DNA of 64,000 bases from Escherichia phage ph0021. Shown here piece after piece: positions 10,994 through 51,676 of the stretch. The stretch lies in sequence record OP557970.1; one strand, given 5' to 3'. The translations under genes and the position numbers were made by a program. Numbering within the stretch: the stretch's first letter is position 1; each line of letters opens with the position of its first letter. Below the pieces are notes generated by a model. The model ran no database searches. It was not told the DNA's origin and saw only the letters and a list, made by a program, of their open reading frames with translations.

Positions 10994-11467
10994 TTATTTG
11001 AACGATTTAACGTACTGAATAGAACCTTTACTATTTACAAAGGCAATTTTACCATTTTTATTATACATGGTAGCAGTACGCTGATAGCCATAAGTTTGCT
11101 TACCAGATTGATAACCAACTAATGCAAAATTATCTTCACCCATTTTATTCTGTTTAGCGCGAATACGTTCATGGCCATGTGCCATAAGAACCTTAGCATC
11201 ACCAGTTGCAATGGATCGACGAGTTTTTTCATCTTCAACTGTATTAACAAAATCGTCAAATGAATCAAATTTAGCATGAGATTTATTATACAGTTTTCCA
11301 TCTACTGCATAATTATATCCTTGTACATCCATCTCAACTTCTGTACCATCATCCAATACAGCAGTGATTTTCTGACCTTTTTTAAATTTCAAAAGATCAG
11401 TAAAAGATTCAGCAATAATTTGAGAATTAATAGCTGCTTCAGTGATAAATTCTTGATATGTTTTCAT
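10994..11467 (-). CDS. Internal protein, IPIII-like, with capsid-targeting leader
   Basis: 157 aa; N-terminal MKTYQEFITE with LxE cleavage motif for the gp21 protease; lies just downstream of e as ipIII does in T4. Confidence 0.6.
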   Translation of the reverse strand: MKTYQEFITEAAINSQIIAESFTDLLKFKKGQKITAVLDDGTEVEMDVQGYNYAVDGKLYNKSHAKFDSFDDFVNTVEDEKTRRSIATGDAKVLMAHGHERIRAKQNKMGEDNFALVGYQSGKQTYGYQRTATMYNKNGKIAFVNSKGSIQYVKSFK

Positions 11468-15331: not shown

Positions 15332-15374
15332 TTCATTCTCCAAGCTGTTTTCTGTATCAGTAGTTGATAGTTGT

Positions 15375-15420
15375 ATAGTACCATGGAAGAACAGAGATGT
15401 AAACAGTTTTGTGAAAAAAT
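15375..15420 (-). promoter_or_regulatory. T4-type early promoter (GTTTAC, 18 nt, TACTAT)
   Basis: -35 at 15399-15404 and -10 at 15375-15380 on minus strand, with A/T tract upstream. Confidence 0.5.
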
Positions 15421-15535
15421 TTTTTAAAAGTTTTAGGGAATTCTAGGGAGGGAAGGGGCAATTAAAGGATAGGATAATATATTATAAAGGGTAGAAACTA
15501 AATGATGCCTAGAGAGGCCCAGAAAGGTCTAGATG

Positions 15536-15564
15536 CCAAAAAGCCCTATCATTTAGATAGGGCT
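15536..15564 (-). terminator. Rho-independent terminator
   Basis: Minus strand AGCCCTATC-loop-GATAGGGCT followed by UUUUU, directly after the stop of ORF 15571..16137. Confidence 0.5.
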
Positions 15565-15570
15565 TTAAAA

Positions 15571-16137
15571 TTATTTGCTTAGTTTAGTTATTATAGCTTC
15601 TGCGGCAGCTTTTAGCTTAGATGCGGTGTTAATACGATTTTTAATTTCAGTATACGCATCGCCAAGAACATCAAGGCTATCGGAATAAACACTTACACTA
15701 TTGCGTTCGCTATTTGAAATAGAACCTTTAGTTTTGCGATCAAAATCGGTGTACACGTCTTGAAGATCACGGGCTGCCTTCTTTGCATCATCCAATGCAT
15801 CAAGAGCTTTATTCAAAGCATTAACATATTTTTTAGTGTCGAACATATTCTTAGAAATTTTGACAGGTGCACGTTCAGGAGTAGCTAAGGCAGATTTAGG
15901 AAGAACCTGTTTGCCAGATGCCAGTTTCTTAGAAATTTTGAAAAACGCTTTATTGAAATTATTTTCTTGACTCATCGTAAAAGAACTATTATCAATGTTA
16001 TACATTTCAATAGCTTTAGCTTTCCACTTAAGAAAATCGCCACGGTCTTTTGGGTCCAAGTGGAAGAATACTTTAGTAAGATCTGCTTCAGATGGTAATT
16101 TTGCTGCTTCGGTTAAAAATTCGGCGTAGGTTTTCAT
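15571..16137 (-). CDS. Internal-protein-like protein with capsid-targeting leader
   Basis: 188 aa; N-terminal MKTYAEFLTEA (LxE motif) as in T4 internal proteins. Confidence 0.55.
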   Translation of the reverse strand: MKTYAEFLTEAAKLPSEADLTKVFFHLDPKDRGDFLKWKAKAIEMYNIDNSSFTMSQENNFNKAFFKISKKLASGKQVLPKSALATPERAPVKISKNMFDTKKYVNALNKALDALDDAKKAARDLQDVYTDFDRKTKGSISNSERNSVSVYSDSLDVLGDAYTEIKNRINTASKLKAAAEAIITKLSK

Positions 16138-16218
16138 TTAAAATCCTTGAAATAATTTATTGGTTATTAATTATTTATCACGTTGTTATATGTAACAGCA
16201 TTCTCCGAGCGATTCAAA

Positions 16219-16247
16219 CTAAAAAGCCCCAACCTTTTGGTCGGGGC
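16219..16247 (-). terminator. Rho-independent terminator
   Basis: Minus strand GCCCCGACC-AAAA-GGUUGGGGC followed by UUUUU after the stop at 16256. Confidence 0.5.
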
Positions 16248-16255
16248 TAAGAATG

Positions 16256-16525
16256 TTATTTGATTTGTTTAGCAGACCAAATGCGGTCTTTGATGATTTT
16301 TTGGAGGTCTTCAACATACTCTAGGTCATGAGCATGTGGATTATCTTTGAAACTATGAGCTCGCGCAAGTTTCTGGCCTTCGGTTTTGATTACTAAAAGC
16401 TCTTTAAGGATAGCTTCATATTTAGCGATAATTCCTTTAACGATATTTTTTTTCTTGTGCAGCTTTAGGATCTGCTTTAGGAGCAGGTTTACCCGAAGCC
16501 TTTGCAAAAGCAGCGCCAGTAGCAA
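16256..16525 (-). CDS. Downstream reading frame of a split internal-protein-like gene
   Basis: ORF in the +1 frame relative to 16437..16730; continuous with it if the A8 run at 16446-16453 is read as A7. Confidence 0.35.
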   Translation of the reverse strand: MLLALLLQRLRVNLLLKQILKLHKKKNIVKGIIAKYEAILKELLVIKTEGQKLARAHSFKDNPHAHDLEYVEDLQKIIKDRIWSAKQIK

Positions 16526-16730
16526 CTAAACTTTTCCAGGCCATACTAACTGCATTTCCCGTAAATCCTTCTGCTTTCATGTCGCGAGCAAACTGGAATC
16601 GTGATTCGTCAGAAGCATCTTTATAGGAATATTTACCCGCTGCAATGGCTGCTTTTGCGACAGCTTGAATTTCGGTGCTAGATGCTTCATTTAACACCGC
16701 TTCATTTAAAAATTGAGCATATGATTTCAT
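16437..16730 (-). CDS. Internal-protein-like protein with capsid-targeting leader (possibly truncated by frameshift)
   Basis: 97 aa; N-terminal MKSYAQFLNEA; stops 3 codons after an A8 homopolymer; late promoter 30 nt upstream. Confidence 0.5.
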   Translation of the reverse strand: MKSYAQFLNEAVLNEASSTEIQAVAKAAIAAGKYSYKDASDESRFQFARDMKAEGFTGNAVSMAWKSLVATGAAFAKASGKPAPKADPKAAQEKKYR

Positions 16731-16760
16731 CTTATTTCCTGTTTTAATTCGTGGATTTAA

Positions 16761-16768
16761 TATACTAC
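16761..16768 (-). promoter_or_regulatory. Late promoter (TATAAATA)
   Basis: Minus strand TATAAATA about 30 nt upstream of the ATG at 16730. Confidence 0.5.
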
Positions 16769-16797
16769 TGTATTTATACTAAAAAGCCCCAACCTTT
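16769..16797 (-). terminator. Rho-independent terminator
   Basis: Minus strand GCCCCGACCGAAAGGUUGGGGC followed by UUUUU, at the 3-prime end of the noncoding RNA region. Confidence 0.5.
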
Positions 16798-17110
16798 CGG
16801 TCGGGGCTAAGCCTTGCGGCAACCTTGTCGTGGTTCCACCTGCTAAGGCAAGTGTTTGTACGAAACGCCGGGATTCGAACCCGGTTATTAAGTAGTTGAC
16901 GCTACTCAATATTTTTAAAAGGCCATATCTCGACCATATCCGAACGTTCCGTCAAAAACGCTACTCGGCTTACGGCAAAGATATTTCCTCGAATCGATAA
17001 TTCGGTGCGCCGTTTCTGCTGTGATAGTAAAGAGCCAGAACACAGTAAAACTGTGGGAGGAAACTATACTCCAGGGAACATCAGTCCGACGACTTACCGG
17101 TAGCGACCCG
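16798..17110 (-). ncRNA. Candidate stable structured RNA(s) downstream of tRNA-Arg (position of T4 species 1/2 RNAs, rnaC/rnaD)
   Basis: About 310 nt with no ORF; tRNA-like T-arm CCGGGTTCGAATCCCGG, several hairpins, terminator at 3-prime end. Confidence 0.35.
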
Positions 17111-17115
17111 GTTTC

Positions 17116-17466
17116 TTAATATTCTTTTAAAGAATCAATATATTCACGGCGTTTACGCCACAAATCAATTGCTTCATACGCGGATTCAGCATTTCGAATT
17201 AGCCGGCATTTATGTAAAGACTTATGATTTTGATATTGTGTAGATAACGGAATTGTATCTAAAAGGTCTTTACGATCAAAATATTCGTAACCATCTAAAC
17301 CAAATGAACGATTTTTGAGAAATTGCCAATGACCATATTCGTTTTCGACATAAACATAATCTGCATGCTGATAAAGCAAATTAATTACACGTTCAGAAAT
17401 AACAGTATCATTATGATTAAAATAGAATGTTAAATCATGAACTACTAAATAAACATTACCTTTCAT
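17116..17466 (-). CDS. Hypothetical protein (116 aa) within the tRNA region
   Basis: ORF between tRNA-Arg and the noncoding RNA region. Confidence 0.5.
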   Translation of the reverse strand: MKGNVYLVVHDLTFYFNHNDTVISERVINLLYQHADYVYVENEYGHWQFLKNRSFGLDGYEYFDRKDLLDTIPLSTQYQNHKSLHKCRLIRNAESAYEAIDLWRKRREYIDSLKEY

Positions 17467-17484
17467 ATTTTCCTCACTTATAAT

Positions 17485-17560
17485 TGGTCGAGGCAGTAGG
17501 GATCGAACCTACGACCTAGGACTTAGAAGGTCCTTGCTCTTCCTTCTGAGCTATGCCCCG
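17485..17560 (-). tRNA. tRNA-Arg (anticodon UCU), CCA encoded
   Basis: Hand-folded cloverleaf: 7-bp acceptor, GCUCAG D-arm, anticodon loop CUUCUAA, T-loop GGTTCGATC, discriminator A. Confidence 0.8.
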
Positions 17561-20038: not shown

Positions 20039-20272
20039 TTATTTTTTACGAAAAATTGATTTATTTTCTGCTGCCCATTTTTCAATAACTGCAGCAGGAC
20101 CAGTAACAACAATTTTATCACCGTAATCTTCTGCGGCGAGTTGACCGAAATTATCTAATGCATCACGAAGAACTCCATGAGGCATTTCACCCATTTTATC
20201 TTTCTTGCCAGTGTAAATAAACTCAACTTTTACATCAGCAGTTTCAGCAATAAATTCTTGGTAAGTTTTCAT
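20039..20272 (-). CDS. Internal protein I-like (capsid-targeted, candidate injected anti-restriction protein)
   Basis: 77 aa from ATG at 20272; N-terminal MKTYQEFIAE, the canonical T4 internal-protein leader; ipI position upstream of 57B. Confidence 0.6.
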   Translation of the reverse strand: MKTYQEFIAETADVKVEFIYTGKKDKMGEMPHGVLRDALDNFGQLAAEDYGDKIVVTGPAAVIEKWAAENKSIFRKK

Positions 20273-20306
20273 TTTGATTTCCATTTGGTTTTGTTTTGAT
20301 AGGGTA

Positions 20307-20336
20307 ATAGTATCACAACTAAAACCCTATGTAAAC
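20307..20336 (-). promoter_or_regulatory. Early promoter (GTTTAC, 18 nt, TACTAT) with inverted repeat around the -10
   Basis: -35 at 20331-20336; 7-bp inverted repeat ATAGGGT/ACCCTAT flanks the -10. Confidence 0.45.
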
Positions 20337-20348
20337 AACTTTGTGAAA

Positions 20349-20606
20349 TTATTTTAAATCTTCTAATCGTTTCTTCATCTTAGAACCATTTTTAGCAATT
20401 TCTCCTGCATCGGAGCATAATGCTAAAAGTGCTTTAACTTTAGTTTGGTCTCCTTTAAAAGATGAAGGATCGACCGCAGCAGCAAGTTCTTTAATACGAG
20501 AGAAAAGACGCTCAGCTTCAGCTAAAGCCATTCCAAGCTTTACTTCCATACCGTGGGAAGATTCAGTGATAGTAGTTTTTGTAACAAACTCTTTGAAAGT
20601 TTTCAT
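20349..20606 (-). CDS. Internal-protein-like small protein
   Basis: 85 aa; N-terminal MKTFKEFVTKTTITE resembles the internal-protein leader. Confidence 0.5.
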   Translation of the reverse strand: MKTFKEFVTKTTITESSHGMEVKLGMALAEAERLFSRIKELAAAVDPSSFKGDQTKVKALLALCSDAGEIAKNGSKMKKRLEDLK

Positions 20607-23600: not shown

Positions 23601-24052
23601 TATGCCCCCTTAAAGCCAAGAGCTCGTAATCCATCTTCTGTTAAAATTCTAAATTTTATTCCACGCTTTTCAGCTAAAGCTTGCGCTGCTTTCCATTTGT
23701 CAGTGTTCACAGACCAGGTATAAATTTCATTCATAAATCTTTTCTTCGCTGCGGTTGTTAGATGTGCTGGTTTAACTGGTGGTTGTGTTTCTTTTTTAGG
23801 TTTTATTTCAATAAAAAATTCTTGTCCAGAAGAATCTTTCATCCAAATATCCATGAAGTATCTACGTTTTTTCCCTTCTGCATTACAAAAATAAGGAATT
23901 ACTGCTGTTTCACTACCCCATGCAATAATTTCTGGATTTTTATCTAACCATTCAAAAAAGAATTTTTCCCAATTTGATCTATACGTAATTTTTTTAGGGT
24001 CACCTCTATACTTTGATATATTTTTAGGAACCCATTTTCCAGAATATGCCAT
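23600..24052 (-). CDS. 4: gp4 head completion protein
   Basis: 150 aa, T4 gp4 length and position; overlaps gene 2 by 1 nt. Confidence 0.85.
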
Positions 24053-50866: not shown

Positions 50867-51676
50867 ATGCTTAAAGAACAACTGATTGCCGAAGCGCAGA
50901 AAATTGATGCTTCCGTTGCTCTTGATAGTATTTTCGAATCAGTTAATATTTCTCCGGAAGCAAAAGAAACTTTCGGCACTGTATTCGAAGCTACCGTCAA
51001 GCAGCACGCCGTTAAATTAGCTGAATCTCATATCGCTAAAATTGCTGAAAAAGCAGAAGAAGAAGTAGAAAAAAATAAAGAAGAAGCAGAAGAAAAAGCT
51101 GAGAAGAAAATCGCTGAGCAAGCTTCTAAATTCCTTGACCATCTTGCAAAAGAATGGCTCACTGAAAATAAATTAGCAGTTGATAAAGGCATCAAAGCCG
51201 AACTGTTTGAATCCATGCTTGGTGGATTAAAAGAGCTCTTTGTTGAACACAACGTTGTTGTTCCAGAAGAATCAGTTGATGTTGTAGCTGAAATGGAAGA
51301 AGAGCTGCAAGAACATAAAGAAGAATCAGCTCGTCTGTTCGAAGAACTCAATATGCGCGACGCATATATCAATTATGTGCAGCGTGAAGTGGCATTGAGC
51401 GAAAGTACTAAAGATCTGACTGAGTCTCAAAAAGAAAAAGTCTCTGCTCTGGTCGAAGGTATGGATTATTCAGATGAATTCTCAAATAAATTGAGTGCCA
51501 TCGTAGAAATGGTGAAGAAGTCTAATAAAGATGAAAGCACTATTACTGAGGGTATAAATACTCCTGATACTGAAGCAGCCGGACTGAATTTCGTCACTGA
51601 AGCTGTAGAAGATAAATCTGCACAAGGTGCAGAAGATATTGTAAGTGTATATGCGAAAGTCGCATCTCGTTTCTAA
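50867..51676 (+). CDS. 22: gp22 major prohead scaffolding core protein
   Basis: 269 aa, acidic coiled-coil, T4 gp22 length. Confidence 0.95.
   Translation: MLKEQLIAEAQKIDASVALDSIFESVNISPEAKETFGTVFEATVKQHAVKLAESHIAKIAEKAEEEVEKNKEEAEEKAEKKIAEQASKFLDHLAKEWLTENKLAVDKGIKAELFESMLGGLKELFVEHNVVVPEESVDVVAEMEEELQEHKEESARLFEELNMRDAYINYVQREVALSESTKDLTESQKEKVSALVEGMDYSDEFSNKLSAIVEMVKKSNKDESTITEGINTPDTEAAGLNFVTEAVEDKSAQGAEDIVSVYAKVASRF

Follow-up and report, generated by a model that had tools for sequence, protein, structure and literature searches.

The internal proteins of bacteriophage T4 bear a capsid-targeting sequence and are processed by the gp21 prohead protease, and one of them, IPI*, inhibits the GmrSD restriction enzyme. 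Frameshift hot spots at runs of A are likewise established in T4, through the slipped-strand model of Streisinger and the rII hot spots. Genes whose reading frame is rescued by transcriptional slippage are represented by Shigella spa13, Thermus dnaX and IS630-type elements. The T-even internal proteins are described as having only the capsid-targeting sequence in common (PMC3012670). The present analysis concerns a stretch of 64,000 nucleotides of Escherichia phage ph0021 (record OP557970.1), below called the window, which shows 100% identity with the T4-like Tequatrovirus PsgM02F, a Pseudomonas phage (OR584013), and within it a leader-bearing gene on the minus strand (16256-16730) that is split into two frames by a run of eight A.

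The truncated open reading frame (ORF) comprises 97 codons and a stop at 16437-16730, with its ATG at 16730 and its TAA at 16439-16437. On the minus strand its 3' end reads GCA CAA GAA(93) AAA AAA TAT CGT TAA, the run (T8 on the plus strand) lying at 16446-16453, and the tail read out of frame amounts to three codons (K-Y-R) before the stop. The +1 frame is open from AAT (16447-16445) for 63 codons up to the TAA at 16258-16256; this out-of-frame 3' part, located at 16256-16447, corresponds to a predicted C-terminal helical hairpin. The positions given in the first-pass annotation of the letters, for the stop three codons past the run as well as for the open frame, were thus confirmed, and removal of one A from A8 indeed yields a single protein, of 157 amino acids (aa) instead of the approximately 158 that had been expected. 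In the ancestral A7 form the tract is contained in the codons GAA-AAA-AAT (E-K-N), and this is the site of the +1A insertion; A6, A7, A8 and A9 all occur among relatives.

Comparison with the phrog_2280 profile showed that the upstream ORF corresponds to positions 1-90 (E 2.8e-37) and the downstream frame to positions 92-172 (E 8.8e-16). The latter value is far beyond chance and bears out the earlier impression that the frame reads like genuine protein. phrog_2280 is a family with no assigned function, whose intact member has 157 aa; Pfam contained no family for the upstream half, the downstream half or the intact protein. Because the pieces match the two halves of phrog_2280, the two ORFs are one gene broken by a +1A insertion, not two genes. 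Moreover, ATG, GTG and TTG are all absent from the downstream frame past the stop of the 97-aa ORF, the sole mechanical start being a TTG at 16525, within the upstream ORF, and since the 3' frame has no start codon it cannot be an independently initiated gene. The deposited annotation, consisting of the 97-aa protein and a spurious 32-aa coding sequence (CDS) of OR584013 at 16219-16317, inside the out-of-frame 3' part, is better read as one frameshifted gene. The gene is carried by about 400 phage records, and in G50 and the great majority of them it is one ORF of 474 nucleotides (nt) with A7.

The transcription signals around the gene fit a single unit. The late-promoter consensus TATAAATA is present at 16771-16778 on the minus strand, 40 nt 5' of the ATG, and the annotation of phage fPS-65 gives this element as a predicted late promoter; the window contains 24 matches to this consensus, with 10.5 expected. 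Between promoter and ATG there is a GGAA Shine-Dalgarno-like element at about 16738-16741 (minus). On the 5' side, an intrinsic-terminator hairpin AGCCCCGACCGAAAGGTTGGGGCT followed by a T-run (16785-16808, minus) ends the tRNA/rnaD/rnaC unit and forms the boundary of the gene cassette; it is annotated as a terminator in G50, G28 and fPS-65 and matches the rnaC-e.8 spacer of T4. A second, near-identical hairpin occurs at 16225-16248 (minus), 7 nt past the stop of the fused frame, and a terminator so placed shows that the transcription unit is sized for the 157-aa protein.

The tract lengths of relatives were collected with a 73-nt query that crossed the run with conserved flanks (46-nt flank) and matched 335 GenBank records. 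A8 was found in at least 8 of the 335, namely as exact matches in SF2-1, teqhal, PYps55T and AUBRB02, and as ungapped matches with one single-nucleotide polymorphism (SNP) in G28, EC128, ECO07P3 and PsgM02F; the same truncated 294-nt CDS is annotated in all eight phages. The comparison with orthologues that the first-pass annotation had proposed thus gave the single-ORF version: approximately 97% have A7 and one in-frame ORF, the split form being confined to about 3% of the GenBank records, and relatives with two consistently separate ORFs, which would have spoken for two genes, were not what was found. Other lengths also occur. Phage fPS-65, sequenced by MiSeq at more than 200x (PMC7917993), has A9 and a 112-aa product with an 18-residue junk tail, F26 has an A6 allele, and in the protein database A8-type (P0008, ...QEKKYC) and A6-type (P0006, P0009) truncations are found in lineages that are only 70-85% identical. 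In a15 and G3G6 a synonymous GAA>GAG change interrupts the tract (AGAAAAA).

The exact 97-aa product of the window was also present on at least 10 contigs (ENA, JGI, Logan and NCBI), mostly from metagenome assemblies, and all nine that were retrieved contained A8. Contig GEVE14 and a JGI contig are identical over 3.3 kb and were counted once; ERR13983364 differs from them by about 1%, yet A8 is common to both. Similarly, CHOI22 and GCA_033543955 are 4 SNPs and 3 indels apart and have A8 in common. Since slightly diverged strains share A8, the allele is inherited in nature. An exact-pattern scan of IMG/VR gave no A8 match and three A7 matches, and a gapped-pattern scan of the JGI metagenomes gave five matches, all A7; these two sets comprise 8 contigs together, too few for the estimation of a frequency in the range of a few percent.

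Within the window the tract is exceptional. It is the sole A/T run of at least 8, where base composition predicts about 10, and there are five A/T runs of at least 7 against about 31 predicted, an approximately 6-fold depletion that would agree with selection against tracts prone to slippage. A nucleotidyltransferase gene (1879-1885), a membrane-protein gene (2427-2433), gp4 (23989-23995) and the gp22 scaffold gene (51069-51075) contain the remaining four. The essential gene 4 (head closure) provided, in its sense-strand A7 run, a matched control for sequencing error, for which a mirror-image query was used: A8 was present in none of 502 genomes, compared with at least 8 of 335 at the split gene. 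At the T7 run of the non-essential membrane-protein gene there was no T8 among the matches listed, a weak test with 142 records and variable flanks. Such an essential-gene homopolymer control separates error from biology with public data alone.

The 17 A8/A9 copies lie on at least 12 haplotypes, interspersed among A7 haplotypes, and the nearest SNPs, 30 nt 5' and 5 nt 3' of the run, occur in three combinations among the A8 copies. The nearest relatives of G28 at the split gene are all A7. The A8 haplotype represented by CHOI22 and GCA_033543955 equals the A7 contig IMGVR_33000 over the 5' 381 nt save for the run length, the only other difference seen being one further 3' substitution. This spread over haplotypes points to multiple events, as do the A6 and A9 alleles and the divergent lineages, and the sequences imply at least six or seven independent slippages at the tract. 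Spread of one old A8 allele by recombination was rejected as the sole explanation, given the three SNP combinations and the A6- and A8-type alleles in lineages 70-85% identical.

When the run was reset to A7, all 17 frameshifted copies gave an open 63-codon 3' frame with no private amino-acid change. The ratio of nonsynonymous to synonymous polymorphism (pN/pS) in the 3' part was 0.096 in frameshifted and 0.085 in intact copies, while the 5' part gave 0.02-0.05, and the 3' variants of the window (H at ...ARAHSF, L at ...EDLQ) are also found in intact alleles such as P0002. Each frameshift is accordingly young, or reverting, or its 3' part is exposed to selection in some other way.

The gene had been described at first as internal-protein-like. 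The N-terminus of its product, MKSYAQFLNE|AVLNE|A, resembles those of T4 IPII and IPIII (MKTYQEFIAE|A) and IPI (MKTFKEF...ITE|A); the leader ends in an L/I-x-E cleavage motif, which is repeated in VLNE|A. In a six-frame scan of the window the pattern M-K-[ST]-[YF]-x-x-F was found in only 5 ORFs: the split gene, the neighbouring gene at 15571-16137, two at the ipI locus (20039-20606) and one at the ipII/III locus (10994-11467). BLASTP against IPI-III gave no significant alignment, and there is no similarity past residue 11, that is, beyond the leader; this is not strictly defining, as known internal proteins also lack mutual homology (PMC3012670). Leader and late promoter uphold the description, while the locus is rnaC-e.8 and not ipI. 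By analogy with IPI-III, the protein is most likely packaged in the head and injected with the DNA, and an anti-defence role may be supposed on the same ground. No virion proteomics for the phrog_2280 family was found in the literature.

The AlphaFold 2 model of the intact protein (mean predicted local distance difference test score 75) comprises a disordered leader (1-14), a three-helix N-domain (18-71), a low-confidence linker rich in P, A and K (about 76-87) and a helical hairpin (88-124 and 131-154). Homologues in Yersinia phage fHe-Yen9-01 and Klebsiella phage KP01 have the N-domain in common and a different C-terminal part. Taken together, the model and these distant homologues place the frameshift, at codons 93-95, on a module boundary, and the product of the split gene is predicted to consist of leader, N-domain and linker and to lack the C-terminal module. 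Searches with the model against PDB and BFVD gave nothing beyond the family itself and no functional lead. The leader and the two predicted parts make phrog_2280 a candidate two-module internal protein of T4 type, an identification that would go beyond the ordinary.

We consider it likely that in the window one A was genuinely inserted by strand slippage at an A7 hot spot, in a late accessory gene that bears a leader and is dispensable; the insertion leads to a truncated product and is one of many short-lived events. The protein would enter the prohead core and, once the prohead protease has trimmed it after L-x-E, be packaged and injected together with the DNA, as an internal protein, a class whose members counter host defences in T4. 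Slippage during replication would add one A to the A7 tract (GAA-AAA-AAT) at the junction of the linker's end with the C-terminal helical module, and the tract has gained and lost bases repeatedly and independently across the gene family. If the gene is dispensable, frameshift alleles could survive until they are sampled, in a few percent of genomes. A recent frameshift mutation had been among the three explanations offered at the outset, and this one has gained support, as one of many independent young slippage events (A6, A8, A9) whose 3' part shows no decay.

Several observations weigh against this explanation or limit it. The absence of decay in all 17 copies is also compatible with a reversible, selected switch. 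Insertions outnumber deletions at the tract, an excess that would not obviously follow from simple neutral slippage. The uncultured sets were A7 in 8 of 8 contigs, and frameshifted copies may accordingly be less frequent in nature than among isolates. Run lengths were read from deposited assemblies, in which mixtures inside a sequenced stock are not visible. Virion localisation, protease processing and dispensability are suggested by the leader and by analogy with T4 IPI-III.

It is tempting to speculate that the gene is instead a phase-variable contingency locus, in which the A-tract switches an injected protein reversibly and heritably between a full-length and a C-terminally truncated form; we hold this to be unlikely, although it deserves some weight. 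Such switching might serve as bet-hedging between hosts in which the C-terminal module is of use, for instance as an inhibitor of a defence system, and others in which it is sensed or costly, a proposal that is equally doubtful. The length of the tract does change both ways, from A6 to A9, and recurrently across lineages, and the truncated (OFF) alleles are heritable and present in uncultured phages. Neither decay nor relaxed selection was seen in the 3' part of any of the 17 OFF copies, an appearance that very young irreversible mutations would share. The tract is one of the five long runs of a genome that otherwise avoids them, and according to the model it is situated at a domain boundary, where truncation would be clean. 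In the neighbouring gene of the same family (15571-16137, minus), which encodes 188 aa with the leader MKTYAEFLTE|A, belongs to phrog_2280 and is intact in the window, an A6 tract (ACT AAAAAA TAT, T-K-K-Y) aligns near the position of the split gene's tract and also expands in nature: in GEVE14 and JGI 3300045988 (2101-2665) it is A7 and the gene is split into 104 and 81 aa. This neighbour could be switched independently through its own tract. In the GEVE14/JGI 3300045988 phage both leader genes are frameshifted at their A-tracts. A precedent is offered by the hypermutable polyG tracts of Campylobacter phages, as the work of Sorensen et al. (2021, Cell Rep 35:109214) is cited in PMC10877375.

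Against such a switch stands the length of the tract, since A7 is short beside classical contingency tracts, and the GAA>GAG break in a15 and G3G6 has no apparent consequence. An uninterrupted A7 is in any case the likeliest encoding of E-K-N under AT-rich codon usage. The OFF alleles amount to only a few percent and were absent from the 8 contigs of the two metagenome sets, and a hot spot in mutation-selection balance, in a gene that can be dispensed with, accounts for the same data. If phase variation were nevertheless true, anti-defence cargo delivered with the DNA would be diversified across the phage population, and the case would be without precedent both as a phase-variable internal protein and, in the T4 group, as an A-tract contingency locus. 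If switching should prove fast or selected, it would be a pointer to a host factor met by the C-terminal module, and isogenic A7 and A8 phages would give an easy genetic handle on internal-protein function.

A deliberate slippage site, at which polymerase or ribosome shifts in a set fraction of cases and both a 97-aa and an approximately 157-aa product are formed, had also been proposed at first, and we regard it as very improbable. Poly(A) slippage itself is well documented, as in the A11 run of Citrobacter tssM, a transcriptional slippage site (PMC4256274), and in runs of 9 A or T, which are slippage sites in bacteria (PMC5009743). In addition, a tRNA-Lys that re-paired at +1, from AAA to AAA, would yield the very protein of the A7 form, as read from the sequence, and the 3' frame is preserved in the frameshifted copies. 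The split arrangement is however a minority one, about 97% of orthologues having a single ORF and the 8 IMG/VR and JGI contigs containing no split copy. The motif is not conserved at the nucleotide level, the run being interrupted in the a15 and G3G6 lineages. The 86 nt past the run have a minimum free energy of -10.2 kcal/mol (z +0.93 versus shuffles), that is, no stimulatory RNA structure, and there is no Shine-Dalgarno-like element 5' of the run; the A-site codon that follows the shift site is not a stop codon, nor is it a rare one. Repair of the frame needs the loss of one A or the gain of two; the A6 and A9 alleles enter the other frame, and no single rule would put both frames right. In a systematic study of E. 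coli RNA polymerase (PMC6260861), none of the poly(A) runs tested gave deletion slippage, and insertion was detectable only from at least 8 A; the runs of bacterial slippage genes are of 9-11 (PMC5009743, PMC4256274). Some low, non-programmed rescue of the full-length frame is conceivable.

An error of homopolymer sequencing or assembly in a phage that is truly A7, with an intact gene, is hardly credible, even though homopolymers are known for such errors, the gene has no lesion besides the extra base and A7 overwhelmingly prevails in relatives, because PsgM02F was sequenced on Illumina at very deep coverage and assembled with Shovill/Pilon (PMC10815195), A8 turns up in many independent Illumina assemblies, the identical truncated protein recurs on at least 10 contigs of unrelated projects, A8 is inherited by close but non-identical strains, and the gene 4 control was negative. 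As a general explanation this first suspicion is rejected, and for the PsgM02F record itself it is unlikely; where an A8 splits a gene in a phage genome sequenced on Illumina, it is not necessarily an error.

The locus of the gene was established by comparison with T4, whose order is tRNA-Arg, rnaD, rnaC, a 284-bp spacer and e.8. In the window rnaC is found at 16859-16997 (99% identical to T4) and rnaD at 17004-17116, and the T4 rnaC-e.8 spacer matches the sequences that flank two inserted genes, the split gene and that at 15571-16137 (compared stretches 15332-15562 and 16776-16858); its hairpin segment matches the window again at 16218-16250. Both leader-bearing genes are cassettes inserted at the place of the rnaC-e.8 spacer of T4, each bordered by a near-identical terminator hairpin (AGCCCCGACC[G/A]AAAGGTTGGGGCT). 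Relatives carry one or two such cassettes, some with a GIY-YIG homing endonuclease upstream. The two-gene arrangement resembles the shuffling of promoter/stem-loop cassettes known in T4-like phages (PMC4122927). Placement at the ipI locus was considered and rejected, as the gene is situated in the rnaC-e.8 interval and separate ipI-locus genes are present in the window at 20039-20606.

The remaining leader-bearing ORFs, all on the minus strand, are located at 10994-11467, 20039-20272 and 20349-20606 and begin with MKTYQEFITEA, MKTYQEFIAET and MKTFKEFVTK..., respectively; their sequences differ from those of T4 IPI-III. Judged by leader sequences, the phage would encode five candidate internal proteins within 10 kb. 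An Rfam search of 16200-17500 gave sub-threshold noise only. Two small hypothetical CDSs of OR584013 on the minus strand, at 16757-16909 and 16915-17043, overlap the homologue of T4 rnaC and are probably spurious. A 116-aa ORF at 17116-17466 (minus), belonging to phrog_3355 with no assigned function, lies between tRNA-Arg and rnaD; in T4 rnaD directly follows tRNA-Arg, and segB is on the other side of tRNA-Arg. PsgM02F was deposited as a phage of Pseudomonas coronafaciens pv. garcae (PMC10815195), an unusual host for the genus, and its genome is 95-97% identical to Tequatrovirus phages of E. coli, Shigella and Yersinia. For T4_ev240, which had appeared as a possibly evolved phage with a truncated allele, no descriptive paper was found.

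A homopolymer frameshift in an accessory gene of a phage is an ordinary event. What goes beyond it is the documented recurrence of A6, A8 and A9 at one tract across wild T4-like phages, where a natural slippage hot spot would repeatedly strip the C-terminal module from a probably injected protein.

The comparison with T4 IPI, IPII and IPIII shows a common leader pattern with the L/I-x-E motif, a late promoter directly upstream and a small gene in a variable region, together with the absence of homology among internal proteins beyond the leader. The split gene differs in its position at rnaC-e.8, where T4 has only the 284-bp spacer, instead of the ipI or ipII/III loci, and whereas IPI* has a compact alpha/beta fold (PMC3012670), the phrog_2280 protein is predicted to be all-helical and composed of two modules. 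With slippage-rescued genes such as Citrobacter rodentium tssM (A11, PMC4256274) it shares a stop just past a poly-A run and a C-terminal part, functional in those genes, in another frame. In those genes, however, the runs are of 9-11 nt and the split is the conserved state, whereas in the phage gene the run is of 8 and the split is a minority allele; its frame moreover needs a deletion, which E. coli RNA polymerase performs poorly on poly(A).

The Campylobacter phage polyG tracts and bacterial contingency loci offer the likeness of a homopolymer in a phage accessory or host-interaction gene whose length differs between close relatives, by which the reading frame is switched while the frame past the tract stays intact. 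Unlike the former, the phrog_2280 tract has 7 A and not at least 9 G, its OFF alleles are rare, it is not conserved in all lineages, and its target is a putative injected protein instead of a receptor-binding protein. The A-run hot spots of T4 described by Streisinger and in rII share with the phrog_2280 tract single-base gain or loss in an A-run, a polymerase of T4 type, a recurrent site and a non-essential gene, the last on the reading preferred here. The difference is that the phrog_2280 events are not laboratory mutants but a natural polymorphism among hundreds of wild isolates and metagenomes, in which all alleles sampled are young.

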